Shown: positions 1-58,100 of the stretch, piece after piece | Numbering within the stretch: the first letter of the stretch is position 1 | Layout: each line of letters opens with the position of its first letter | Origin: Lingula anatina | Taxonomy: Eukaryota; Animalia; Brachiopoda | Direction of reading: 5' to 3' | NCBI GenBank assembly: GCA_051362555.1 | Contig: CM120646.1 | Location: forward strand, 5,580,001-5,644,000 | Length of the DNA: 64,000 nucleotides | Notes under the pieces: generated by a model | What the model saw: only the letters and a program-made list of their open reading frames with translations | Database searches by the model: none | Told to the model about the DNA's origin: nothing | Program-made: the position numbers and the translations under genes

Positions 1-123
1 CATGACACATGAATAGAACAATGGTGACACTAAATACAACTGGTAAGAAGGGACAGACAGAGATAAGACAGCTTGACAGAAGTAAGCTTGAATATCTTGA
101 CATATTTGACATGGGGGATAAGG

Positions 124-131
124 TATAAAAG
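124..131 (+). promoter_or_regulatory. TATA box TATAAAAG, first of 37 copies (one per C unit; e.g. 1740, 3518, 5294, 6645, 63806)
   Basis: Exact TATAWAWR consensus (GGTATAAAAGC) with CA dinucleotides ~27-32 nt downstream (CCAGACAG). It lies 91 bp upstream of the first hairpin of each run and is retained in the diverged right-hand copies. Function is inferred. Confidence 0.55.
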
Positions 132-214: not shown

Positions 215-292
215 GCCATGATGTAGAATTGGCAGAAGATTGTGGCTGTGAATGTGACCAGTCATAATTTTATGTCAACATTACACCATGGT
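215..292 (+). ncRNA. Candidate pri-miRNA hairpin H1 (representative; one per A, B and C unit, ~230 copies estimated); predicted 5p AUUGGCAGAAGAUUGUGGCUG(U)
   Basis: Consensus GCCAUGAUGUAGA|AUUGGCAGAAGAUUGUGGCUG-UGAAUGUGAC-CAGUCACAAUUUUAUGUCAACAU|UACACCAUGGU. It has an ~11-bp lower stem, a 20-bp upper stem with G-U pairs and one G.A mismatch, a 10-nt loop, UGUG at the apical junction and CAGC (CNNC) at +17 (298-301). Folded by hand; cut sites are uncertain by 1-2 nt. Confidence 0.68.
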
Positions 293-337
293 ACAGACAG
301 CGTGAAAACACAAGTGAAGAAATAATCGAAGATTCAA

Positions 338-418
338 CCCACTGTATATTTTTGGCAATAAAGGAGTGGCTGGGGAATATAACACCAGTGCTTCTTTTTG
401 TCAAACCTGTTCAGTGGG
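338..418 (+). ncRNA. Candidate pri-miRNA hairpin H2 (representative; one per A unit, ~140 copies estimated); predicted 5p UUUGGCAAUAAAGGAGUGGCUG(G)
   Basis: CCCACUGUAUAUU|UUUGGCAAUAAAGGAGUGGCUGG-GGAAUAUAACA-CCAGUGCUUCUUUUUGUCAAACC|UGUUCAGUGGG. CCCACUG pairs with CAGUGGG at the base, flanks are 13 and 11 nt, the predicted pre-miRNA is 57 nt (351-407), and CCUC (CNNC) sits at +17 (424-427). Confidence 0.68.
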
Positions 419-1235
419 AAAAACCTCAAATAATGTAAAGAAATAGATGCAGATGGGATAAAAATTGGCCATGATGTAGAATTGGCAGAAGATTGTGGCT
501 GTGAATGTGATCAGTCGCAATTTTAAGTCAACATTACACCATGGTACAGACGGCGTTAAAAACAGTAGTGAAGAAATGTAAGAAGAAGATTCAACCCACT
601 GTATATTTTTGGCAATAAAGGAGTGGCTGGGGAATATAACACCAGTGCTTCTTTTTGTCAAACCTGTTCAGTGGGAAAAACCTCAAATAATATGAAGAAA
701 TTGATGCAGATGGAAAATAAATTTGGTCATGATGTAAAATTGGCAGAAGATTGTGGCTGTGAATGTGATCAGTCGCAATTTAAGTCAACATTACAACATG
801 GTATAGACGGCGTGAAAACAGAAGTGAAGAAATGTACGAAGAAGATTTAACCCCACTGTATATTTTTGGCAATAAAGGAGTGGCTGGGGAATATAACACC
901 AGTGCTTCTTTTTGTCAAACCTGTTCAGTGGGTAAAACCTCAAATAATGTGAAGAAATAGATGCAGATGGGATTAAAATTGGCCATGATGTAGAATTGGC
1001 AGAAGATTGTGGCTGTGAAACTGACCAGTCACAATTTTATGTCAACATTACACCATGGTACAGACAGCGTGAAAACAGAAGTGAAGATTTATTCGAAGAT
1101 TCAACCCACTGTATATTTTTGGCAATAAAGGAGTGGCTGGGGAATATAACACCAGTGCTTCTTTTTGTCAAACCTGTTCAGTGGGAAAAACCTCAAATAA
1201 TGTGAAGAAATAGATGCAGGTGGAAAACAAATTTG

Positions 1236-1392: not shown

Positions 1393-1470
1393 GCCATGAT
1401 GTAGAATTGGCAGAAGATTGTGGCTGTTAAACTGATCAGTTGCAATTTCATGTCAATACTACACCAAAGT
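1393..1470 (+). ncRNA. H1 hairpin, terminal C-unit variant (representative)
   Basis: Same 5' arm. The 3' arm CAGUUGCAAUUUCAUGUCAAU still pairs via G-U and A-U, and UGUAG pairs with CUACA (G-C where other variants have G-U). The most basal pairs are weakened (CCAAAG). Confidence 0.55.
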
Positions 1471-1502
1471 CCAGTCAACAGCTTTGTTTGGTTTGTTGTA
1501 GG

Positions 1503-1508
1503 ATTAAA
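1503..1508 (+). terminator. Candidate polyadenylation signal ATTAAA after the last hairpin of each run (representative)
   Basis: ATTAAA is the common variant poly(A) hexamer. It lies ~35 nt after the C-unit hairpin, next to a GT-rich tract, in nearly all C units (ATTTAA at ~60128). Support is positional only. Confidence 0.3.
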
Positions 1509-1529
1509 CATTGTAAGATGATTAGTTTA

Positions 1530-1775
1530 CAGGTAGACAAGATAAAATCTTGATTGCAATCATAGCTGAGAAGTCACCTGTGGAAAGTCTACTACTTGGG
1601 CTGTGACAACTGTACACATGACACATGAATAGAACAATGGTGACACTAAATACAACTGGTAAGAAGGGACAGACAGAGAAAAGACAGCTTGACAGAAGTA
1701 AACTTGAATATCTTGACATATTTGACATGGGGGATGAGGTATAAAAGCAACTACACAGTAGAAACCAGACAGAAA
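1530..1775 (+). promoter_or_regulatory. Candidate Pol II promoter module in the unique part of unit C (representative)
   Basis: CAGGTAG at 1530, six same-strand TGACA at 1604, 1619, 1641, 1690, 1714 and 1723, AACAAT at 1633 (only some copies), and TATAAAAG at 1740. Confidence 0.45.
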
Positions 1776-4700
1776 GCTCTTGGATAAGAGCATAAGAACA
1801 GTCATGATGTAAGGTGTGCATAAATTTTGGGCCATGATGTAGAATTGGCAGAAGATTGTGGCTGTGAATGTGACCAGTCACAATTTTATGTCAACATTAC
1901 ACCATGGTACAGACAGCATGAAAACACAAGTGAAGAAATATTCAAAGATTCAACCCACTGTATATTTTTGGCAATAAAGGAGTGGCTGGGGAATATAACA
2001 CCAGTGCTTCTTTTTGTCAAACCTGTTCAGAGGGAAAAACCTCAAATAATGTGAAGAAATAGATGCAGATGGGATAAAAATTGGCCATGATGTAGAATTG
2101 GCAGAAGATTGTGGCTGTGAATGTGATCAGTCGCAATTTTAAGTCAACATTACAACATGGTACAGACGGCGTTAAAAACAGAAGTGAAGAAATGTACGAA
2201 GAAGATTTAACCCACTGTATATTTTTGGCAATAAAGGAGTGGCTGGGGAATATAACACCAGTGCTTCTTTTTGTCAAACCTGTTCAGTGGGAAAAACCTC
2301 AAATAATATGAAGAAATTGATGCAGATGTGATAAAAATTGGCCATGATGTAGAATTGGCAGAAGATTGTGGCTGTGAATGTGATCAGTCGCAATTCTAAG
2401 TCAACATTACAACATGGTACAGACGGCGTGAAAACAGAAATGAAGAAATGTACGAAGAAGATTTAACCCTACTGTATATTTTTGGCAATAAAGGAGTGGC
2501 TGGGGAATATAACACCAGTGCTTCTTTTTGTCAAACCTGTTCAGTGGGAAAAACCTCAAATAATATGAAGAAATTGATGCAGATGGAAAACAAATTTGGT
2601 CATGATGTAAAATTGGCAGAAGTTTGTGGCTGTGAAACTGAACAGTCACAATTTTATGTCAACATTACAACATGGTCAAGACAGCATGAAAATACAAGTG
2701 AAGACGAATCGAATGATGTTAAGAATTTGACACACATTGGGAAAGATTATTTTAGGCGATGATGTAGAATTGGCAGAAGATTGTGGCTGTGAATGTGATA
2801 AGTCGCAATTCTAAGTCAACATTACAACATGGTACAGACGGCGTGAAAACAGAAATGAAGAAATGTACGAAGAAGATTTAACCCTACTGTATATTTTTGG
2901 CAATAAAGGAGTGGCTGGGGAATATAACACCAGTGCTTCTTTTTGTCAAACCTGTTCAGTGGGAAAAACCTCAAATAATGTGAAGAAATAGATGCAGATG
3001 GAAAACAAATTTGGTCATGATGTAAAATTGGCAGAAGATTGTGGCTGTGAAACTGACCAGTCACAATTTGATGTCAACATTACAACATGGTCAAGACAGC
3101 GTGAAAATACAAGTGAAGACGAATCGAATGATGTTAAGAATTTGACACACGTTGGGAAAGATTATTTTAGGCCATGATGTAGAATTGGCAGAAGATTGTG
3201 GCTGTAAAACTGATCAGTTGCAATTTCATGTCAATACTACACCAAAGTCCAGTCAACAGCTTTGTTTGGTTTGTTGTAGGATTAAACATTGTAAGATGAT
3301 TAGTTTACAGGTAGACAAGATAAAATCTTGATTGCAATCATAGCTGAGAAGTCACCTGTGGAAAGTCTACTACTTGGGCTGTGACAACTGTACACATGAC
3401 ACATGAATAGAACAATGGTGACACTAAATACAACTGGTAAGAAGGGACAGACAGAGAAAAGACAGCTTGACAGAAGTAAACTTGAATATCTTGACATATT
3501 TGACATGGGGGATGAGGTATAAAAGCAACTACACAGTAGAAACCAGACAGAAAGCTCTTGGATAAGAGCATAAGAACAGTCATGATGTAAGGTGTGCATA
3601 AATTTTGGGCCATGATGTAGAATTGGCAGAAGATTGTGGCTGTGAATGTGACCAGTCACAATTTTATGTCAACATTACACCATGGTACAGACAGCATGAA
3701 AACACAAGTGAAGAAATATTCAAAGATTCAACCCACTGTATATTTTTGGCAATAAAGGAGTGGCTGGGGAATATAACACCAGTGCTTCTTTTTGTCAAAC
3801 CTGTTCAGAGGGAAAAACCTCAAATAATGTGAAGAAATAGATGCAGATGGGATAAAAATTGGCCATGATGTAGAATTGGCAGAAGATTGTGGCTGTGAAT
3901 GTGATCAGTCGCAATTTTAAGTCAACATTACAACATGGTACAGACGGCGTTAAAAACAGAAGTGAAGAAATGTACGAAGAAGATTTAACCCACTGTATAT
4001 TTTTGGCAATAAAGGAGTGGCTGGGGAATATAACACCAGTGCTTCTTTTTGTCAAACCTGTTCAGTGGGAAAAACCTCAAATAATATGAAGAAATTGATG
4101 CAGATGTGATAAAAATTGGCCATGATGTAGAATTGGCAGAAGATTGTGGCTGTGAATGTGATCAGTCGCAATTCTAAGTCAACATTACAACATGGTACAG
4201 ACGGCGTGAAAACAGAAATGAAGAAATGTACGAAGAAGATTTAACCCTACTGTATATTTTTGGCAATAAAGGAGTGGCTGGGGAATATAACACCAGTGCT
4301 TCTTTTTGTCAAACCTGTTCAGTGGGAAAAACCTCAAATAATATGAAGAAATTGATGCAGATGGAAAACAAATTTGGTCATGATGTAAAATTGGCAGAAG
4401 TTTGTGGCTGTGAAACTGAACAGTCACAATTTTATGTCAACATTACAACATGGTCAAGACAGCATGAAAATACAAGTGAAGACGAATCGAATGATGTTAA
4501 GAATTTGACACACATTGGGAAAGATTATTTTAGGCCATGATGTAGAATTGGCAGAAGATTGTGGCTGTGAATGTGATAAGTCGCAATTCTAAGTCAACAT
4601 TACAACATGGTACAGACGGCGTGAAAACAGAAATGAAGAAATGTACGAAGAAGATTTAACCCTACTGTATATTTTTGGCAATAAAGGAGTGGCTGGGGAA

Positions 4701-25700: not shown

Positions 25701-27316
25701 CATGGTACAGACGGCGTGAAAACAGTAGTGAAGAAATGTACGAAGAAGATTCAACCCACTGTATATTTTTGGCAATAAAGGAGTGGCTGGGGAATATAAC
25801 ACCAGTGCTTCTTTTTGTCAAACCTGTTCAGTGGGAAAAACCTCAAATAATATGAAGAAATTGATGCAGATGGAAAACAAATTTGGTCATGATGTAAAAT
25901 TGGCAGAAGTTTGTGGCTGTGAAACTGAACAGTCACAATTTTATGTCAACATTACAACATGGTCAAAACAGCATGAAAATACAAGTGAAGACGAATCGAA
26001 TGATGTTAAGAATTTGACACACATTGGGAAAGATTATTTTAGGCCATGATGTAGAATTGGCAGAAGATTGTGGCTGTAAAACTGATCAGTCACAATTTTA
26101 TGTCAACATTACACCATGGTACAGACAGCGTGAAAACACAAGTGAAGAAATATTCAAAGATTCATCCCACTGTATATTTTTGGCAATAAAGGAGTGGCTG
26201 GGGAATATAACACCAGTGCTTCTTTTTGTCAAACCTGTTCAGTGGGAAAAACCTCAAATAATGTGAAGAAATAGATGCAGATGGAAAACAAATTTGGTCA
26301 TGATGTAAAATTGGCAGAAGATTGTGGCTGTGAAACTGACCAGTCACAATTTGATGTCAACATTACAACATGGTCAAGACAGCGTGAAAATACAAGTGAA
26401 GACGAATCGAATGATGTTAAGAATTTGACACACTTTGGGAAAGATTATTTTAGGCCATGATGTAGAATTGGCAGAAGATTGTGGCTGTAAAACTGATCAG
26501 TTGCAATTTCATGTCAATACTACACCAAAGTCCAGTCAACAGCTTTGTTTGGTTTGTTGTAGGATTAAACATTGTAAGATGATTAGTTTACAGGTAGACA
26601 AGATAAAATCTTGATTGCAATCATAGCTGAGAAGTCACCTGTGGAAAGTCTACTACTTGGGCTGTGACAACTGTACACATGACACATGAATAGAACAAGG
26701 GTGACACTAAATACAACTGGTAAGAATGGACAGACAGAGATAAGACAGCTTGACAGAAGTAAACTTGAATATCTTGACATATTTGACATGGGGGATGAGG
26801 TATAAAAGCAACTACACAGTAGAAACCAGACAGAAAGCTCTTGGATAAGAGCATAAGAACAGTCATGATGTAAGATGTGCATAAATTTTGGACCATGATG
26901 TAGAATTGGCAGAAGATTGTGGCTGTGAATGTGACCAGTCACAATTTTATGTCAACATTACACCATGGTACAGACAGCGTGAAAACACAAGTGAAGAAAT
27001 ATTCAAAGATTCAACCCACTGTATATTTTTGGCAATAAAGGAGTGGCTGGGGAATATAACACCAGTGCTTTTTTTTTGTCAAACCTGTTCAGTGGGAAAA
27101 ACCTCAAATAATGTGAAGAAATAGATGCAGATGGGATAACAAGGCAGCAAAGCTGTCAAATGTACAGACAAAAACCAGAAAATAAAAACGCAGGAAATAG
27201 GATACTGTCAATTCTGATGAACTAATGTATTATGCTTACTGTAACTGCATAGCCAACATCAAATTCTTATTCTGCATAACATTGGATTAGGATGAAAGTA
27301 AAATGTGTATCAAGCA

Positions 27317-27541
27317 TTAGACTAAGTTCCCATACCTAAATCAATCTAACAGGATCAATGCAACTCCAAGGGGTTTCTCACTAAATTGCTTTCAGTTTGA
27401 GAGTCTTAGGATTCTGGCATGCCAGTTTCAGAAGGCGTGACAGACAACTAAGCCACTTACATTGATTGCAATTTAGCGAGAATTCCCATGGAGATAGATC
27501 GATCCACAGTTAGCGTGATAGGGTCTGGAAATAGTCCCTAA
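27317..27541. mobile_element. Decayed MITE-like foldback nested in the HINE
   Basis: CTCCAAGGGGTTTCTCACTAAATTGC (27364-27389) matches the reverse complement of 27468-27493 at 22/26. Similarity extends outward with indels to ~70-bp arms. A central palindrome CTGGCATGCCAG lies at 27415-27426. Confidence 0.55.
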
Positions 27542-27627
27542 GGTGTCAGGCTGATAAGAGTTAAACTTTGGAAATGCCAGAATGAGGTACAGTGAAAATC
27601 ACACACAAAAAAATTGCTTAAACTCAT

Positions 27628-27682
27628 TAAAAAAAAAAATATATATATATATATATGTATATATTATTAATTTTTTTTTTTT
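27628..27682. repeat. poly(A)-(TA)n-poly(T) low-complexity tract
   Basis: An A-run, about nine AT dinucleotides and a T-run are directly visible. Confidence 0.9.
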
Positions 27683-29043
27683 GGGCTGTATGTCAATCCT
27701 AAGAATCATTCTTGTAACTTAACAAAATACAGAAAATGTTACAAAGTAAGAGTACAGGGCTCCTGGCAGATGGGAGTGATAAGTCACAACTTGAAAATGC
27801 CAGTATAGCACTCTATAAACCTGCATTGCCTCCAAAACAGAAAACAATCACACTGGTTTTCAAACACAAGCTGCGCACTTCTGTCTTATGAAACTTTTCA
27901 CTAAGTTTCAGTATCGTAAGTAACATGGTTTTCCCTTAATCGCTATCCTGGCAGCAGTGTCCAAAATAGGGTTTTCTTCAACTTTCATGCAATAAAACAT
28001 AATACTTAACAGCATAATGACCATCAAATTTTTTATAAAAAAATAAAAGTATCATGAAAATTCAGAAAATGTGATTTGGGAAGGTCTTCAAGGCCATGGA
28101 AGTTCAGAGTCACACTTTCAAAATGCCAAAATGTAAACAAGAGATAACTGTACTGAAATGATTTTCTTTCCATTTTCAACACCTTTTTTAAAACAAAATG
28201 ATCAATAAACTGTCATTTTTAAATGTTCAACTAGGAAAATATAGGAAAAATAGCAATAGAACAATTTTCAATGTCCAATTTGCTCCATTTGCAGATGCTG
28301 AACATAGTGAATGATTAAATCTGACAAACTGCAATGATGAGTTCCTTTCCATTTATGATACTTTATTACACAATGCACAATATTATAACAGGTTTACCGT
28401 CATTTTTATATAATCAACAAACAATATTGTTAAGAAGCAGAAAATGTCAAAACAACACTTTTACATATCTTATTAGTTCCATAATGAGACTGTTAACATG
28501 CCTAAGAATTAAATCTGAAGAAATAACAATTATATACAAAAATACAGAAAATGCACAGCACTTCTGGTGGATGGGAGTATAAAATCACATCTTGAAGATG
28601 CTTGTGTTTGAAAAATAATTTTAAAAAATTTTTAAATAAAACGTAAAAAATTCCAATAAAGCTGCTATTCAAACTTTTAATCTAGCTGTATTAACTTGAT
28701 ATTAATAACCCCACCAAGTTTGAGAAAAATAAAGCACTGTTATTCATCTATAGCATGTTGGCATAACACAATCTTTTTGTTGTAAATTTATTTGCAATGT
28801 TAAATACCATTTATCTGCACAATTATCACCAAATCCTAATTTTGTGACACAGTTAAGAGAGCTAAACCTATGGGACTTTACAGGGAAATCTCAAGGAGTG
28901 TTTTATGTAATCTCATTTAATGGCCAATTGAAAATTAATGAGTAGGCAAGTGACTTTATAGACCTTAATTTAATTAGTGATCACCCAAGGGACAATTTTA
29001 TAGACTAGCTGCCATCCATACAGTACCATCATATAGCACAAAG

Positions 29044-29706
29044 GTGTTGCATACATGCTGAAAAAAGTGAAAAAAACAGCATAACTTCCCTAAAAATGAC
29101 CCGATGATGCTGATTTTCAAACTTGACCTGCGTATTATGAATATTCATTAGTTCTGCAAGTTTCAAACCAAAAGGTAAAATGGTTTTCCACTTATCATGT
29201 TATCAGTGTTGCATATATGCTGAAAAAAGTGAAAAACAGCATAACTTCCCTAAAAATGACCCAATCATACTGATTTTCAAACTTGACCTGCGTATTATGA
29301 ATATTCATCAGTTCTGTAAGTTTGAAACCAAAAGGTAAAATGGTTTTCCACTTATCGTGTTATCGGTGCTGCATATATGCTGAAAAAAGTGAAAAAACAG
29401 CATAACTACCCTAAAAATGACCCATTCATGCTGATTTTCGAACTTGACCTGCGTAATATGAATATTCATTAGTTCTGCAAGTTTCAAGCCAAAAGGTAAA
29501 ATGATTTTTCACTTATCATGTTATCAGTGTTGCATATATGGTGAAAAAAGTGAAAAACAGCATAACTTCCCTAAAAATGACCCGATCATGCTGATTTTCG
29601 AACTTGACCTGCGTATTATGAATATTCATCAGTTTTGTAAGTTTCAAGGGAAAAGGTAAAATGGTTTTCCACTTATCGTGTTATCGGTGCTGCATATATG
29701 CTGAAA
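29044..29706. repeat. HINE internal tandem repeat block 1, four ~161-bp monomers
   Basis: G(C/G)TGAAA...CAGCATAACTTCCCTAAAAATGACCC...AACTTGACCTGCGTATTATGAATATTC recurs from 29057, 29219, 29379 and 29540, ending at ~29700. Confidence 0.95.
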
Positions 29707-30098
29707 CAAGACAGCACTGTTCTGCAATGGGTTTACTTCCATTTTTAAAACACTTTTTTAACATAAAACAAAATAAACAGTTTTCTACCATTTGTATATG
29801 ATCAACTAAGAAAATTGATGAGATGGGAAAAATATCAATAGAACAGTGTTAAATGTCCAATTTCCTCCATTCTGAGATAATGAATATAGTAGATGATTGA
29901 ATCTGCCAAACTGCAATAATATTTATTTCCATTTTTGACACTTTATAACATAATGCACAATAACAAGTTTACCATCATTTTTACATAATCAACTAACAAT
30001 GTTATTAAGATGCAGGAAATGTCAAACAAACACTTTTACGTATCTTATTAGTTCAATAATGAGACTGTTAATATGCCTAACAATTGAATCTGAGGAAA

Positions 30099-31044
30099 TG
30101 TGAAAAAACAGCATAACTTCTAAAAGAATGGCCCAATTATGCTGATTTTGGAACTCAACTTGCGTTTTAGTTAGTTTGACTACTCCTGTGAGTATAATGA
30201 CAATTGGCCTATCTGTTTTTCTTATATTGTGTTATAAGCGTTGCATATATGTTGAAAGAAGTGAAAAAACAGCATAACATCCCTAAAAATGGCCCGATCA
30301 TGCTGATTTTCAAACTTGACCTGCGTAATTTGAATATTCATCAGTTTTATAAGTTTCAAGCCAAAAGGTAAAATGATTTTCCATTTATGGTGTTATCGGT
30401 GCTGCATATATGCTGAAAAAAGAGAAAAAATAGCCTAAATTCACTAAAAATGATCCAATCACGCTGATTTTCGAACTTGACCTGCGTATTATGAATATTC
30501 ATCAGTTCTGTAAGTTTCAAGTCAAAAGGTAAAATGGTTTTCCACTTATCGTGTTATCGGTGCTGCATATATGCTGAAAAAAGTGAAAAAACAGCATAAA
30601 TTCCCTAAAAGTGACCCGATCATGCTGATTTTCGAACTTGACCTGCGTATTATGAATATTCATCAGTTCTGTAAGTTTCAAGTCAAAAGGTAAAATGGTT
30701 TTCCACTTATCGTGTTATCGGTGCTGCATACATGCTGAAAAAAGTGAAAAAACAGCATAAATTCCCTAAAAGTAACCCGATTATGCTGATTTTCGAACTT
30801 GACCTGCGTATTATGAATATTCATCAGTTCTGTAAGTTTCAAGTCAAAAGGTAAAATGGTTTTCCACTTATCGTGTTATCGGTGCTGCATATATGCTGAA
30901 AAAAGTGAAAAAACAGCATAAATTCCCTAAAAGCGACCCGATCATGCTGATTTTCGAACTTGACCTGCGTATTATGAATATTCATCAGTTCTGCAAGTTT
31001 CAAGTCAAAAGGTAAAATGGTTTTCCACTTATCGTGTTATCGGT
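30099..31044. repeat. HINE internal tandem repeat block 2, about six 161-bp monomers (first degenerate, last truncated)
   Basis: Monomer starts at 30251, 30412, 30573, 30734 and 30895, with a period of 161. Confidence 0.95.
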
Positions 31045-31050
31045 AAAAGT

Positions 31051-31099
31051 GCACGGCGACGGCAACGGCGACGACGGCGACGACAGACGCAGATGATGG
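31051..31099. repeat. Cryptic (GAC/GGC)n microsatellite next to the HINE terminal hairpin
   Basis: GCACGGCGACGGCAACGGCGACGACGGCGACGACAGACGCAGATGATGG. This position is typical of HINE/DINE-1-like elements. Confidence 0.85.
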
Positions 31100-31133
31100 C
31101 AATATGTACAGACACATCTGTGTCTGTACATAA

Positions 31134-49100: not shown

Positions 49101-52100
49101 TAGAATTGGCAGAAGATTGTGGCTGTGAATGTGATCAGTCGCAATTTTAAGTCAACATTACAACATGGTACAGACGGCGTTAAAAACAGAAGTGAAGAAA
49201 TGTACGAAGAAGATTTAACCCACTGTATATTTTTGGCAATAAAGGAGTGGCTGGGGAATATAACACCAGTGCTTCTTTTTGTCAAACCTGTTCAGTGGGA
49301 AAAACCTCAAATAATATGAAGAAATTGATGCAGATGGGATAAAAATTGGCCATGATTTAGAATTGGCAGAAGATTGTGGCTGTGAATGTGATCAGTCGCA
49401 ATTTTAAGTCAACATTACAACATGGTACAGACGGCGTGAAAACAGAAGTGAAGAAATGTACGAAGAAGATTTAACCCCACTGTATATTTTTGGCAATAAA
49501 GGAGTGGCTGGGGAATATAACACCAGTGCTTCTTTTTGTCAAACCTGTTCAGTGGGAAAAACCTCAAATAATATGAAGAAATTGATGCAGATGGAAAATA
49601 AATTTGGTCATGATGTAAAATTGGCAGAAGATTGTGGCTGTGAATGTGATCAGTCGCAATTTTAAGTCAACATTACAACATGGTACAGACAGCGTGAAAA
49701 CAGAAGTGAAGAAATGTACGAAGAAGATTTAACCCACTGTATATTTTTGGCAATAAAGGAGTGGCTGGGGAATATAACACCAGTGCTTCTTTTTGTCAAA
49801 CCTGTTCAGTGGGTAAAACCTCAAATAATGTGAAGAAATAGATGCAGATGGGATTAAAATTGGCCATGATGTAGAATTGGCAGAAGATTGTGGCTGTGAA
49901 ACTGACCATTCACAATTTTATGTCAACATTACAACATGGTCAAGACAGCATGAAAATACAAGTGAAGACGAATCGAATGATGTTAAGAATTTGACACACA
50001 TTGGGAAAGATTATTTTAGGCCATGATGTAGAATTGGCAGAAGATTGTGGCTGTAAAACTGATCAGTCACAATTTTATGTCAACATTACACCATGGTACA
50101 GACAGCGTGAAAACACAAGTGAAGAAATATTCGAAGATTCAACCCACTGTATATTTTTGGCAATAAAGGAGTGGCTGGGGAATATAACACCAGTGCTTCT
50201 TTTTGTCAAACCTGTTCAGTGGGAAAAACCTCAAATAATGTGAAGAAATAGATGCAGATGGAAAACAAATTTGGTCATGATGTAAAATTGGCAGAAGATT
50301 GTGGCTGTGAAACTGACCAGTAACAATTTGATGTCAACATTACAACATGGTCAAGACAGCGTGAAAATACAAGTGAAGACGAATCGAATGATGTTAAGAA
50401 TTTGACACACATTGGGAAAGATTATTTTAGGCCATGATGTAGAATTGGCAGAAGATTGTGGCTGTAAAACTGATCAGTCGCAATTGTCAACATTACACCA
50501 TGTCAACATTACACCATGGTACAGACAGCGTGAAAACACAAGTGAAGAAATATTCAAAGATTCAACCCACTGTATATTTTTGGCAATAAAGGAGTGGCTG
50601 GGGAATATAACACCAGTGCTTCTTTTTGTCAAACCTGTTCAGTGGGAAAAACCTCAAATAATGTGAAGAAATAGATGCAGATGGAAAACAAATTTGGTCA
50701 TGATGTAAAATTGGCAGAAGATTGTGGCTGTGAAACTGACCAGTCACAATTTGATGTCAACATTACAACATGGTCAAGACAGCGTGAAAATACAAGTGAA
50801 GACGAATCGAATGATGTTAAGAATTTGACACACGTTGGGAAAGATTATTTTAGGCCATGATGTAGAATTGGCAGAAGATTGTGGCTGTAAAACTGATCAG
50901 TTGCAATTTCATGTCAATACTACACCAAAGTCCAGTCAACAGCTTTGTTTGGTTTGTTGTAGGATTAAACATTGTAAGATGATTAGTTTACAGGTAGACA
51001 AGATAAAATCTTGATTGCAATCATAGCTGAGAAGTCACCTGTGGAAAGTCTACTACTTGGGCTGTGACAACTGTACACATGACACATGAATAGAACAAGG
51101 GTGACACTAAATACAACTGGTAAGAATGGACAGACAGAGATAAGACAGCTTGACAGAAGTAAACTTGAATATCTTGACATATTTGACATGGGGGATGAGG
51201 TATAAAAGCAACTACACAGTAGAAACCAGACAGAAAGCTCTTGGATAAGAGCATAAGAACAGTCATGATGTAAGGTGTGCATAAATTTTGGGCCAGACGG
51301 CGTGAAAACAGAAGTGAAGAAATGTACGAAGAAGATTTAACCCACTGTATATTTTTGGCAATAAAGGAGTGGCTGGGGAATATAACACCAGTGCTTCTTT
51401 TTGTCAAACCTGTTCAGTGGGTAAAACCTCAAATAATGTGAAGAAATAGATGCAGATGGGATTAAAATTGGCCATGATGTAGAATTGGCAGAAGATTGTG
51501 GCTGTGAAACTGACCAGTCACAATTTTATGTCAACATTACACCATGGTACAGACAGCGTGAAAACACAAGTGAAGAAATATTCGAAGATTCAACCCACTG
51601 TATATTTTTGGCAATAAAGGAGTGGCTGGGGAATATAACACCAGTGCTTCTTTTTGTCAAACCTGTTCAGTGGGAAAAACCTCAAATAATGTGAAGAAAT
51701 AGATGCAGATGGGATAAAAATTGGCCATGATGTAGAATTGGCAGAAGATTGTGGCTGTGAATGTGATCAGTCGCAATTTTAAGTCAACATTACAACATGG
51801 TACAGACGGCGTTAAAAACAGTAGTGAAGAAATGTACGAAGAAGATTCAACCCACTGTATATTTTTGGCAATAAAGGAGTGGCTGAGGAATATAACACCA
51901 GTGCTTCTTTTTGTCAAAACTGTTCAGTGGGAAAAACCTCAAATAATATGAAGAAATTGATGCAGATGGAAAATAAATTTGGTCATGATGTAAAATTGGC
52001 AGAAGATTGTGGCTGTGAATGTGATCAGTCGCAATTTTAAGTCAACATTACAACATGGTATAGACGGCGTGAAAACAGAAGTGAAGAAATGTACGAAGAA

Positions 52101-55100
52101 GATTTAACCCACTGTATATTTTTGGCAATAAAGGAGTGGCTGGGGAATATAACACCAGTGCTTCTTTTTGTCAAACCTGTTCAGTGGGAAAAACCTCAAA
52201 TAATATGAAGAAATTGATGCAGATGGGATAAAAATTGGCCATGATTTAGAATTGGCAGAAGATTGTGGCTGTGAATGTGATCAGTCGCAATTTTAAGTCA
52301 ACATTACAACATGGTACAGACGGCGTGAAAACAGAAGTGAAGAAATGTACGAAGAAGATTTAACCCACTGTATATTTTTGGCAATAAAGGAGTGGCTGGG
52401 GAATATAACACCAGTGCTTCTTTTTGTCAAACCTGTTCAGTGGGTAAAACCTCAAATAATGTGAAGAAATAGATGCAGATGGGATTAAAATTGGCCATGA
52501 TGTAGAATTGGCAGAAGATTGTGGCTGTGAAACTGACCAGTCACAATTTTATGTCAACATTACACCATGGTACAGACAGCGTGAAAACACAAGTGAAGAA
52601 ATATTCGAAGATTCAACCCACTGTATATTTTTGGCAATAAAGGAGTGGCTGGGGAATATAACACCAGTGCTTCTTTTTGTCAAACCTGTTCAGTGGGAAA
52701 AACCTCAAATAATGTGAAGAAATAGATGCAGATGGGATAAAAATTGGCCATGATGTAGAATTGGCAGAAGATTGTGGCTGTGAATGTGATCAGTCGCAAT
52801 TTTAAGTCAACATTACAACATGGTACAGACGGCGTTAAAAACAGTAGTGAAGAAATGTACGAAGAAGATTCAACCCACTGTATATTTTTGGCAATAAAGG
52901 AGTGGCTGAGGAATATAACACCAGTGCTTCTTTTTGTCAAAACTGTTCAGTGGGAAAAACCTCAAATAATATGAAGAAATTGATGCAGATGGAAAATAAA
53001 TTTGGTCATGATGTAAAATTGGCAGAAGATTGTGGCTGTGAATGTGATCAGTCGCAATTTTAAGTCAACATTACAACATGGTACAGACGGCGTGAAAACA
53101 GAAGTGAAGAAATGTACGAAGAAGATTTAACCCACTGTATATTTTTGGCAATAAAGGAGTGGCTGGGGAATATAACACCAGTGCTTCTTTTTGTCAAACC
53201 TGTTCAGTGGGTAAAACCTCAAATAATGTGAAGAAATAGATGCAGATGGGATTAAAATTGGCCATGATGTAGAATTGGCAGAAGATTGTGGCTGTGAAAC
53301 TGACCATTCACAATTTTATGTCAACATTACAACATGGTCAAGACAGCATGAAAATACAAGTGAAGACGAATCGAATGATGTTAAGAATTTGACACACATT
53401 GGGAAAGATTATTTTAGGCCATGATGTAGAATTGGCAGAAGATTGTGGCTGTAAAACTGATCAGTCACAATTTTATGTCAACATTACACCATGGTACAGA
53501 CAGCGTGAAAACACAAGTGAAGAAATATTCGAAGATTCAACCCACTGTATATTTTTGGCAATAAAGGAGTGGCTGGGGAATATAACACCAGTGCTTCTTT
53601 TTGTCAAACCTGTTCAGTGGGAAAAACCTCAAATAATGTGAAGAAATAGATGCAGATGGAAAACAAATTTGGTCATGATGTAAAATTGGCAGAAGATTGT
53701 GGCTGTGAAACTGACCAGTAACAATTTGATGTCAACATTACAACATGGTCAAGACAGCGTGAAAATACAAGTGAAGACGAATCGAATGATGTTAAGAATT
53801 TGACACACATTGGGAAAGATTATTTTAGGCCATGATGTAGAATTGGCAGAAGATTGTGGCTGTAAAACTGATCAGTCGCAATTGTCAACATTACACCATG
53901 TCAACATTACACCATGGTACAGACAGCGTGAAAACACAAGTGAAGAAATATTCAAAGATTCAACCCACTGTATATTTTTGGCAATAAAGGAGTGGCTGGG
54001 GAATATAACACCAGTGCTTCTTTTTGTCAAACCTGTTCAGTGGGAAAAACCTCAAATAATGTGAAGAAATAGATGCAGATGGAAAACAAATTTGGTCATG
54101 ATGTAAAATTGGCAGAAGATTGTGGCTGTGAAACTGACCAGTCACAATTTGATGTCAACATTACAACATGGTCAAGACAGCGTGAAAATACAAGTGAAGA
54201 CGAATCGAATGATGTTAAGAATTTGACACACGTTGGGAAAGATTATTTTAGGCCATGATGTAGAATTGGCAGAAGATTGTGGCTGTAAAACTGATCAGTT
54301 GCAATTTCTGGTCAATACTACACCAAAGTCCAGTCAACAGCTTTGTTTGGTTTGTTGTAGGATTAAACATTGTAAGATGATTAGTTTACAGGTAGACAAG
54401 ATAAAATCTTGATTGCAATCATAGCTGAGAAGTCACCTGTGGAAAGTCTACTACTTGGGCTGTGACAACTGTATACATGACACATGAATAGAACAAGGGT
54501 GACACTAAATACAACTGGTAAGAATGGACAGACAGAGATAAGACAGCTTGACAGAAGTAAACTTGAATATCTTGACATATTTGACATGGGGGATGAGGTA
54601 TAAAAGCAACTACACAGTAGAAACCAGACAGAAAGCTCTAGGATAAGAGCATAAGAACAGTCATGATGTAAGGTGTGCATAAATTTTGGGCCATGATGTA
54701 GAATTGGCAGAAGATTGTGGCTGTGAATGTGACCAGTCACAATTTTATGTCAACATTACACCATGGTACAGACAGCGTGAAAACACAAGTGAAGAAATAT
54801 TCAAAGATTCAACCCACTGTACATTTTTGGCAATAAAGGAGTGGCTGGGGAATATAACACCAGTGCTTCTTTTTGTCAAACCTGTTCAGTGGGAAAAACC
54901 TCAAATAATGTGAAGAAATAGATGCAGATGGGATAAAAATTGGCCATGATGTAGAATTGGCAGAAGATTGTGGCTGTGAATGTGATCAGTCGCAATTTTA
55001 AGTCAACATTACAACATGGTACAGACGGCGTTAAAAACAGTAGTGAAGAAATGTACGAAGAAGATTCAACCCACTGTATATTTTTGGCAATAAAGGAGTG

Positions 55101-58100
55101 GCTGAGGAATATAACACCAGTGCTTCTTTTTGTCAAAACTGTTCAGTGGGAAAAACCTCAAATAATATGAAGAAATTGATGCAGATGGAAAATAAATTTG
55201 GTCATGATGTAAAATTGGCAGAAGATTGTGGCTGTGAATGTGATCAGTCGCAATTTTAAGTCAACATTACAACATGGTATAGACGGCGTGAAAACAGAAG
55301 TGAAGAAATGTACGAAGAAGATTTAACCCACTGTATATTTTTGGCAATAAAGGAGTGGCTGGGGAATATAACACCAGTGCTTCTTTTTGTCAAACCTGTT
55401 CAGTGGGTAAAACCTCAAATAATGTGAAGAAATAGATGCAGATGGGATTAAAATTGGCCATGATGTAGAATTGGCAGAAGATTGTGGCTGTGAAACTGAC
55501 CAGTCACAATTTTATGTCAACATTACACCATGGTACAGACAGCGTGAAAACACAAGTGAAGAAATATTCGAAGATTCAACCCACTGTATATTTTTGGCAA
55601 TAAAGGAGTGGCTGGGGAATATAACACCAGTGCTTCTTTTTGTCAAACCTGTTCAGTGGGAAAAACCTCAAATAATGTGAAGAAATAGATGCAGATGGAA
55701 AACAAATTTGGTCATGATGTAAAATTGGCAGAAGATTGTGGCTGTGAAACTGACCAGTCACAATTTGATGTCAACATTACAACATGGTCAAGACAGCGTG
55801 AAAATACAAGTGAAGACGAATCGAATGATGTTAAGAATTTGACACACGTTGGGAAAGATTATTTTAGGCCATGATGTAGAATTGGCAGAAGATTGTGGCT
55901 GTAAAACTGATCAGTTGCAATTTCATGTCAATACTACACCAAAGTCCAGTCAACAGCTTTGTTTGGTTTGTTGTAGGATTAAACATTGTAAGATGATTAG
56001 TTTACAGGTAGACAAGATAAAATCTTGATTGCAATCATAGCTGAGAAGTCACCTGTGGAAAGTCTACTACTTGGGCTGTGACAACTGTACACATGACACA
56101 TGAATAGAACAAGGGTGACACTAAATACAACTGGTAAGAATGGACAGACAGAGATAAGACAGCTTGACAGAAGTAAACTTGAATATCTTGACATATTTGA
56201 CATGGGGGATGAGGTATAAAAGCAACTACACAGTAGAAACCAGACAGAAAGCTCTTGGATAAGAGCATGAGAACAGTCATGATGTAAGGTGTGCATAAAT
56301 TTTGGGCCATGATGTAGAATTGGCAGAAGATTGTGGCTGTGAATGTGACCAGTCACAATTTTATGTCAACATTACACCATGGTACAGACAGCGTGAAAAC
56401 ACAAGTGAAGAAATATTCAAAGATTCAACCCACTGTATATTTTTGGCAATAAAGGAGTGGCTGGGGAATATAACACCAGTGCTTCTTTTTGTCAAACCTG
56501 TTCAGTGGGAAAAACCTCAAATAATGTGAAGAAATAGATGCAGATGGGATAAAAATTGGCCATGATGTAGAATTGGCAGAAGATTGTGGCTGTGAATGTG
56601 ATCAGTCGCAATTTTAAGTCAACATTACAACATGGTACAGACGGCGTTAAAAACAGAAGTGAAGAAATGTACGAAGAAGATTTAACCCACTGTATATTTT
56701 TGGCAATAAAGGAGTGGCTGGGGAATATAACACCAGTGCTTCTTTTTGTCAAACCTGTTCAGTGGGAAAAACCTCAAATAATATGAAGAAATTGATGCAG
56801 ATGGGATAAAAATTGGCCATGATGTAGAATTGGCAGAAGATTGTGGCTGTGAATGTGATCAGTCGCAATTTTAAGTCAACATTACAACATGGTACAGACG
56901 GCGTGAAAACAGAAGTGAAGAAATGTACGAAGAAGATTTAACCCCACTGTATATTTTTGGCAATAAAGGAGTGGCTGGGGAATATAACACCAGTGCTTCT
57001 TTTTGTCAAACCTGTTCAGTGGGAAAAACCTCAAATAATATGAAGAAATTGATGCAGATGGAAAACAAATTTGGTCATGATGTAAAATTGGCAGAAGATT
57101 GTGGCTGTGAATGTGATCAGTCGCAATTTTAAGTCAACATTACAACATGGTACAGACGGCGTGAAAACAGAAGTGAAGAAATGTACGAAGAAGATTTAAC
57201 CCACTGTATATTTTTGGCAATAAAGGAGTGGCTGGGGAATATAACACCAGTGCTTCTTTTTGTCAAACCTGTTCAGTGGGTAAAACCTCAAATAATGTGA
57301 AGAAATAGATGCAGATGGGATTAAAATTGGCCATGATGTAGAATTGGCAGAAGATTGTGGCTGTGAAACTGACCATTCACAATTTTATGTCAACATTACA
57401 ACATGGTCAAGACAGCATGAAAATACAAGTGAAGACGAATCGAATGATGTTAAGAATTTGACACACATTGGGAAAGATTATTTTAGGCCATGATGTAGAA
57501 TTGGCAGAAGATTGTGGCTGTAAAACTGATCAGTCACAATTTTATGTCAACATTACACCATGGTACAGACAGCGTGAAAACACAAGTGAAGAAATATTCG
57601 AAGATTCAACCCACTGTATATTTTTGGCAATAAAGGAGTCGCAGGGGAATATAACACCAGTGCTTCTTTTTGTCAAACCTGTTCAGTGGGAAAAACCTCA
57701 AATAATGTGAAGAAATAGATGCAGATGGAAAACAAATTTGGTCATGATGTAAAATTGGCAGAAGATTGTGGCTGTGAAACTGACCAGTAACAATTTGATG
57801 TCAACATTACAACATGGTCAAGACAGCGTGAAAATACAAGTGAAGACGAATTGAATGATGTTAAGAATTTGACACACATTGGGAAAGATTATTTTAGGCC
57901 ATGATGTAGAATTGGCAGAAGATTGTGGCTGTAAAACTGATCAGTCGCAATTGTCAACATTACACCATGTCAACATTACACCATGGTACAGACAGCGTGA
58001 AAACACAAGTGAAGAAATATTCAAAGATTCAACCCACTGTATATTTTTGGCAATAAAGGAGTGGCTGGGGAATATAACACCAGTGCTTCTTTTTGTCAAA

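Follow-up and report, generated by a model that had tools for sequence, protein, structure and literature searches.

A probable microRNA mega-array in Lingula anatina with a miR-430-like layout and a predicted miR-96/182-type seed

We analyzed a 64,000-nt stretch of Lingula anatina DNA (the window), the whole of which, apart from one 4-kb insertion, is a single array of two hairpins, H1 and H2. The reading that we favor, with reasonable but far from complete confidence, is that H1 and H2 are microRNA genes in an array of at least 37 units, each marked by a TATA-like box, and that they share a predicted UUGGCA seed and would be delivered at a very high dose. The array is probably a new microRNA mega-array with a miR-430-like layout and a predicted seed of the miR-96/182 type. 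The features on which this reading is built are listed in Table 1.

Table 1. Positions of the main features in the 64,000-nt window (position 1 is its first letter).
Feature	Positions	Strand	Remarks
Array, first part, units of TATA (putative) (H1 H2)n H1 H1	1-27140	+	
Array, second part, beyond the 4-kb insertion	31130-64000	+	runs off the end of the window
GGTATAAAAG box	122-131	+	about 104 nt upstream of each unit's first predicted cut
H1 primary hairpin, including 13/11-nt lower stem	215-292	+	229 copies
H1 predicted precursor, 54 nt	228-281	+	predicted guide 228-249, seed nt 2-7 at 229-234
H1 apical UGUG	247-250	+	
H1 CNNC	298-301	+	+17 past predicted 3′ cut
H2 primary hairpin, including 13/11-nt lower stem	338-418	+	mismatch -6/+4; 140 copies
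H2 predicted precursor, 57 nt	351-407	+	predicted guide 351-373, seed nt 2-7 at 352-357
H2 CNNC	424-427	+	+17 past predicted 3′ cut
Terminal H1 subtype, last of each unit	1393-1470	+	predicted precursor 1406-1459; 36 of 36 terminal copies
Terminal H1 CNNC, in its own 3′ flank	1476-1479	+	again at +17
Spacer with stranded poly(A) RNA reads	1479-1786	+	run X1; sharp left edge at 1479
11-mer GTGAAGAAATA, spacer after H1	1930-1940	+	
11-mer GTGAAGAAATA, spacer after H2	2051-2061	+	

All 229 H1 and 140 H2 copies lie on the + strand, and their numbers did not change when copies were sought by the 3′ side alone (193 + 36 for H1). They are ordered into 37 units of the form box (H1 H2)n H1 H1, with a mean length of 1.66 kb when the insertion is left out, so that within the window H1 copies outnumber the spacer 6.2-fold and H2 copies 3.8-fold. 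First, internal, penultimate and terminal subtypes of H1 can be told apart. All 37 units carry the same GGTATAAAAG box, an invariant TATAAAAG precedes the hairpins in every one of them, and the distance from the box to the first H1 is 107-108 nt (anchor to anchor) in 36 of 37. Spacing from H1 to H2 is mostly 123-127 and from H2 to H1 130-131. A third hairpin was sought in the longer H1-H1 spacer and in the promoter spacer, and none was found there (z -0.7 to +1.0). Upstream of the TATA-like box lie TTGACA(G/T) words, AGATAAG, AACAATGG and CATTGT, which we take to resemble TALE, GATA and Sox sites. Just past each unit's predicted start site there is also a short palindromic stem, GCTCTT-GGAT-AAGAGC (1776-1791 and copies). 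The spacers differ on average by 1.4%, so the array is recent or homogenised, and H1 and H2 are far older than this divergence. Uniformity of copies could be explained by concerted evolution alone, as in a higher-order satellite without microRNA that is inert, gives rise to endogenous siRNAs or piRNAs, or acts as a structural RNA, and whose GGTATAAAAG box is a poly(A) signal or a product of chance. We consider such a satellite improbable, for reasons that emerge from the hairpins themselves.

On the + strand, H1 and H2 each fold into a single long stem (-35.0 and -36.7 kcal/mol; z -5.9 and -4.9, with 0 of 200 shuffles equal). Folds of the - strand are weak (z -1.8 for H1 and -2.3 for H2) because the stems hold five G-U pairs each, as against two and none when the - strand is folded. 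With the lower stem included there are 31 pairs in H1 and 32 in H2, and the loops measure 8-10, in keeping with the form of animal microRNA hairpins (a precursor of about 50-80 nt, at least 16 paired arm positions and a loop of at least 8). The repeated arms are also able to pair between copies in long folds, as a satellite or siRNA source would have it. A structural RNA finds less in the unit to recommend it, since the hammerhead core and the C box motif, searched in their familiar forms, are absent from both strands; hammerhead or C/D snoRNA identity was rejected on this ground.

The hairpins also carry marks of microRNA processing. Predicted cuts at 228 and 351 with 2-nt overhangs yield the precursors of 54 and 57 nt and leave a lower stem of 13/11 nt in both. 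A CNNC motif stands at +17 in 224 of 229 H1 and 135 of 140 H2 copies (background rate 0.028 per position), and it does so in three different flanks, those of H1, terminal H1 and H2; the common H1 allele within it alters an N only. Three H1 copies (50485-50518, 53883-53916 and 57952-57985) have lost part of the 3′ arm and carry a 16-bp duplication behind it, so that their motif is shifted to +19; at a spacing of 27, another H1 has fused with the H2 that comes after it. An 11-bp ruler, UGUG and CNNC are Microprocessor marks (PMC6298569), and CNNC is placed at about +16 to +21 (PMC9111935). UGU occurs at nt 20-22 in H1 only. H2 has a -6/+4 mismatch, and the lower-stem mismatch of H1 lies at -7, not -6. 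Such a -6/+4 mismatch and precursor lengths are described in the MirGeneDB 3.0 preprint, and both the 54-nt and 57-nt precursors and the H2 mismatch fit its patterns. The remaining marks are incomplete: the basal UG expected at -14 is 1 nt off in internal H1 copies or absent, C at -5 and a purine at +5 are absent from both hairpins, and of the GHG/CmR mark only the -6/+4 mismatch of CmR is present, in H2. Since the H1 mismatch lies at -7, the basal UG is off and the -5 and +5 letters are absent, H1 may be cut 1 nt earlier. Taken together, the 228/351 register is likely, with an uncertainty of 1 nt.

In this predicted register, H1 and H2 are identical at nt 2-7 (UUGGCA) and differ at nt 1 and 8. 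The common seed thus follows from the predicted cut, as judged by lower-stem length and CNNC position, and a shift of 1 nt would give seeds that differ at nt 7. It is conceivable, if rather unlikely, that the two are real paralogues processed in another register, with different seeds; the shared block would then persist because processing requires it, or through common descent. Starting 1 nt later would give UGGCAG and UGGCAA, and starting 1 nt earlier in H1 would give AUUGGC. Such registers are allowed by the tolerance of CNNC for +16 to +21; a start at 227 would put the H1 mismatch at the usual -6, and with a start at 229 the first letter of H1 would be U. However, only in the 228/351/1406 register do 13/11-nt stems coincide with a +17 CNNC in three flanks, and the identity of H1 and H2 spans exactly nt 2-7, ending at nt 1 and nt 8.

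The initial annotation had described H1 and H2 as paralogues that share UUGGCA, GUGGCUG, GAAU.U.AC, CAGU and UGUCAA, with 5′ arms from 228 and 351, and the letters are as it gave them. The middle of the duplex, said to have changed while remaining paired, indeed contains three pairs changed on both sides and one changed on one side. Two details need qualification. CAAUUU is the H1 consensus, and the copy at 228 itself carries a rare 3′-arm allele (U at 265 marks a rare H1 variant, 3 of 229 copies); the loop match GAAU holds in about half of H1 copies and fails in 81 of 190, which read GAAAC.

Common origin is backed by shuffle tests and by the agreement of both arms. Global alignment of the precursors scores 39, whereas dinucleotide shuffles average 10.7 and none of 2000 scores as high; pair-keeping shuffles that permute H2 base pairs never reach that score (0 of 5000), and each arm alone beats its shuffles (4 and 23 of 2000). 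In a structural alignment, a covariance model of eight H1 copies fits H2 end to end in the register of the initial annotation. The H1-only model gives H2 21.3 bits on the + strand and 3.5 on the -, but an ordinary long hairpin from a decoy contig also reaches 22 bits with it (1 of 29 loci, 64 kb), and the bit score alone is therefore no proof of paralogy. That decoy, at L026:909-1000 in a metagenome contig, is nearly symmetric (22 bits on +, 21.4 on -), lies apart from the pattern match and was treated as a generic inverted repeat. MAFFT, which uses sequence only, missed the 5′-arm register in two of two tries.

For pair counts, the register was set by structure with a hand-set pair table, MAFFT consensus folding being left out as misaligned. 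We compared 31 columns against consensus H2, leaving out gap columns and columns unpaired in both. Twenty-seven are paired in both hairpins, 17 of them identical, 3 changed on one side and 7 changed on both. Three of the two-sided changes are mid-duplex, and the other four, at -13, -9, -8 and -5 in the gap-free lower stem, are beyond those used in the initial annotation. Seen from H1, 27 of 29 paired columns stay paired in H2, vs. 16.5 when the same number of changes is placed at random (0 of 200000 as good) and 21.7 when random letters are drawn at the same sites (408 of 200000); under the stricter null, the lower stem alone is not significant (15484 of 200000). H1 and H2 are two sequences and so provide one independent comparison, which is below R-scape-grade covariation. 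Among the eight H1 copies, none of the 30 pairs shows a two-sided change. Of the common H1 alleles at paired columns, 6 preserve the pairing and 9 disrupt it, the disruptive ones lying for the most part close to the internal loop (nt 7-10) and the stem base. Paralogues with compensated stems are ordinary for microRNA clusters.

The array unit had further been taken for an old dimer of a hairpin unit of about 125 bp. This is borne out only in part. It holds for the hairpin, and the spacings lie mostly at 123-127 and 130-131, but the spacers after H1 and H2 align overall at chance level (202 of 2000 and 992 of 2000). They share only one 11-mer, GTGAAGAAATA, at a similar distance from the hairpin in both (as good in 8 of 3000 single-letter shuffles). 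It is plausible that a unit of about 125 bp was ancestral, its hairpin part being well grounded in the sequence and its spacer part only hinted at.

Variation among copies bears on the choice of arm. The 5′ arm of H1 has a diversity of 0.006 (0.005 at nt 2-8), the 3′ arm one of 0.109 and the loop one of 0.212; the corresponding values for H2 are 0.003, 0.010 and 0.009. Constraint on the 5′ arm, as annotated initially, is thereby borne out. Selection on RNA structure likewise stands, with 27 of 29 pairs kept vs. 21.7 expected, and selection on nt 2-7 as a seed depends on the predicted cut. In H1, alleles present in at least 4 of 228 copies occur at 2 of 22 sites of the 5′ arm, at none of the 7 sites of nt 2-8, and at 9 of 23 sites of the 3′ arm (Fisher p 0.035); in H2, they occur at 3 of 57 precursor sites vs. 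21 of 64 spacer sites (Fisher p 0.0002). Copies of an array are related, not independent, and these p values are accordingly generous. In both hairpins the 5′ arm is more conserved than star and loop, the pattern expected of a guide arm, and a crude end-stability estimate from 6-mers favors it in 2 of 4 hairpin types only. The guide of H1 is likely its 5′ arm, and in H2 the 3′ arm could conceivably be a second guide besides the 5′ arm. The 3′-arm seeds of H1 vary (AGUCAC, AGUCGC and AGUUGC), and none is common to H2. A satellite without microRNA would leave unexplained this asymmetry between the arms, the seven two-sided changes, the +17 CNNC in three flanks and the G-U-rich folds of one strand only.

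The predicted 5′ guides are comparable with those of the MIR-96 family (miR-96, miR-182 and annelid and mollusc Mir-96-P1/P2), in which a 5′ guide likewise has UUGGCA at nt 2-7. The family's seed, UUGGCA or AUGGCA at nt 2-7, is present here in the predicted register. H2 nt 1-9 equal nt 1-9 of sea-urchin and mouse miR-182 (PMC6039759, PMC7014274), H1 and H2 start like earthworm Mir-96-P1 and P2 for 7 nt, and both end in CUG, as P2 does (PMC8915122). Among the matches listed from the same source, annelid and limpet Mir-96 genes share UUGGCA at nt 2-7, and the labels Efe-Mir-96-P2o and Lgi-Mir-96-P1i suggest, from the names only, that MIR-96 has multiplied in earthworm and limpet. Outside the seed, however, a comparison by eye of H2 with Capitella P1 gives agreement at 5 positions out of 15, which is close to chance, and the family's 3′ block GAAU(U)CAC, as given there, is missing, H1 having GAUUGUGG and H2 GAGUGG. 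Rfam gave no MIR-96 match up to E 10. Because the 3′ block is missing, H1 and H2 cannot be filed as MIR-96 members, although by analogy they would act like them. We found no report of MIR-96 in a promoter-repeated array of hundreds of copies.

In its architecture, the array is closest to miR-430. The zebrafish miR-430 locus has more than 300 units, one per 1.8 kb, each with a 650-bp TATA promoter and two or three hairpin triplets (10.1101/2021.08.09.455629). As in fish miR-430, a TATA spacer is followed by a block of paralogous hairpins with variable repeats (10.1101/2021.08.09.455629, PMC10417697), there is one unit per 1.7-1.8 kb, hairpins number in the hundreds with subtypes in fixed order, and mobile DNA is found within or near the repeats. 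The likeness to miR-430 that the initial annotation had seen extends to this tandem multi-promoter layout (37 units with a TATA-like box whose promoter role is predicted) and not to the sequence family. The predicted seed is UUGGCA in place of AAGUGC, the conserved arm is the 5′ and not the 3′, and two subtypes in the order (H1 H2)n H1 H1 replace the triplets; promoter activity and embryonic expression are predictions here. An AAGUGC 3′ seed is found in neither hairpin, H2 having CAGUGC and H1 a variable sequence.

Descent from miR-430/427/302, with the H2 3′ arm still a guide whose seed has shifted by one base (AGUGCUU), appears very unlikely to us. The H2 3′ arm (385-407) does match miR-430c nt 3-16 at 13 of 14 positions in a near-correct register (by eye, with the sequence given in PMC8269179) and the whole arm at 13 of 22 (uncorrected binomial p 0.002). 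It is also nearly as fixed as the 5′ arm (0.010 vs. 0.003), and the array architecture is that of miR-430. Against this, AAGTGC occurs only once in 64 kb, no miR-430, -302, -290 or -515 model is among Rfam matches up to E 10, and the H1 3′ seeds are variable and differ from that of H2. AGUG also begins the star of Capitella Mir-96-P2, which offers another possible source for the start of the match; it is because of this star and the varying H1 seeds that we keep this origin low. More generally, no Rfam model matched the window at gathering score, and matches up to E 10 were weak generic hairpins, the best being mir-599 (19.9 bits vs. a cut-off of 94). In PMC10417697, miR-430 is stated to be absent from tunicates, cephalochordates, insects and molluscs. 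CpG observed/expected values of 0.2-0.3 would be compatible with a vertebrate host as well. They are 0.21-0.30 outside the 160-bp repeats of the insertion, with no CpG in the 371-nt spacer (1460-1830 and copies), and such low values point to heavy methylation of the host DNA.

The insertion (27140-31130) is AT-rich and splits an H2-H1 spacer. Repeats of 160/161 bp occupy two blocks within it (29044-29710 and 30242-31044). Beyond these come a microsatellite rich in GAC, around 31054-31090, and, at about 31104-31129, a palindrome with TAAAAA behind it. The insertion presumably resembles non-autonomous rolling-circle elements of the Helentron/DINE-1/pearl type. DINE-1/pearl-type elements are known mostly from invertebrates. 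A search for a coding role turned up short stop-to-stop frames only, the longest of 85 aa. At 27370-27490 the insertion forms a long imperfect hairpin (z -6.8, 0 of 200 shuffles), which has no Rfam match up to E 1 and reaches 7 bits with the H1 model.

RNA over the spacer was examined by comparing four of nine runs (all nine being long-RNA libraries; 6-25% of each run) with 1435-2085. Run X1 gave 42 reads, X7 gave 2, and X4 and X5 gave none; the X1 support amounts to 21 read pairs from one poly(A) run of unstated tissue. In the spacer reads of X1 the first mate is always on the - strand, meaning + strand RNA if the library is of the usual type. Coverage has a depth of 11-30 over 1479-1720 and has faded out by 1786; over the hairpins, despite their higher copy number, it does not exceed 2. 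The left edge at 1479, where 6 molecules end, lies 19 nt beyond the last cut as predicted (1459/1460). This pattern fits hairpins cut from a longer transcript whose tail survives. A satellite without microRNA would be in accord with the low RNA level and with read coverage that ends past TATAAA. Sequences that look like 3′-end signals also follow the terminal CNNC (1476-1510), namely CA, then a tract rich in GU at 1481-1499, then an ATTAAA at 1503.

The GGTATAAAAG box is likely a TATA box, its function being predicted. However, the spacer RNA crosses the presumed promoter and fades 20-40 nt past TATAAA, a word that can also serve as a variant poly(A) signal. Because the RNA tail ends there, the box is possibly a poly(A) signal also, or instead, and its role may be to end transcripts, whether or not it also starts them.

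Searches for relatives of the hairpins gave little. A degenerate H1/H2 pattern found 29 metagenome and 7 viral loci, all single matches without a BLAST hit to the unit (E 0.01); as relatives these were rejected and taken as chance. An H1 21-mer had no match in prokaryote genomes, and an H2 pattern met 3 viral loci, none reaching 9 bits with the H1 model. Four 18-letter arm motifs had no match in the literature searched (supplements and most subscription journals lie outside it), and we found no description of such an array there, although the mature sequences may be catalogued as unnamed novel microRNAs. The nearest invertebrate parallel is an embryo-expressed cluster on scaffold 488 of Capitella teleta, in which tandem paralogues share a seed and which its authors liken to miR-430. 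Among the rows listed, it spans at least about 7 kb and has mostly 3′ guides with the seed AAGCAC or near; by eye, these show no sequence likeness to H1 or H2 (PMC8915122).

Based on these observations, the microRNA array could have arisen and worked as follows. One ancestral hairpin would have been duplicated long ago, and the hairpin pair, then a cassette of promoter plus hairpins, would have been amplified by unequal exchange and kept uniform. RNA polymerase II would start about 30 nt past each TATA box, Microprocessor would cut 13/11 nt from the stem base with the aid of an SR protein on CNNC, and Dicer would produce duplexes of about 22 nt. The 5′ arms, with A or U as first letter, would be loaded on Argonaute and bind UGCCAA sites, and nt 8 (G or A) together with nt 9-14 would widen the target set. 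By analogy with miR-430/427, the use may be a microRNA burst in the early embryo or germ line, a suggestion that we put forward tentatively, at somewhat below even chances. The known clearance microRNAs named in PMC10197650 are miR-430, miR-427 and miR-309, those of fly and fish being called unrelated there. More doubtful still, in our estimation, is the specific case of an invertebrate machine of miR-430 type with a MIR-96/182-type seed, in which hundreds of hairpins behind dozens to hundreds of TATA promoters would be fired at genome activation against maternal mRNAs with UGCCAA sites; among the papers listed, nothing linked UGCCAA to maternal clearance. Candidate annelid hairpins starting UUGGCAAGU would, if they are of the same kind, make such arrays a recurring solution.

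In the literature examined, the known promoter-dense arrays are those of fish miR-430, along with high-copy frog miR-427. The compensated stems of H1 and H2 are evidence of RNA-level selection on an apparent satellite, and UGCCAA is a predictable target word that can be checked in staged transcriptomes. If the microRNA reading is true, a conserved seed class, that of miR-96/182, would have been reused at several hundred copies. The layout of many TATA promoters and polycistronic same-seed hairpins would then be a convergent route to a fast, large dose, and with this array the transcription-body idea could be tested directly in an animal other than zebrafish.
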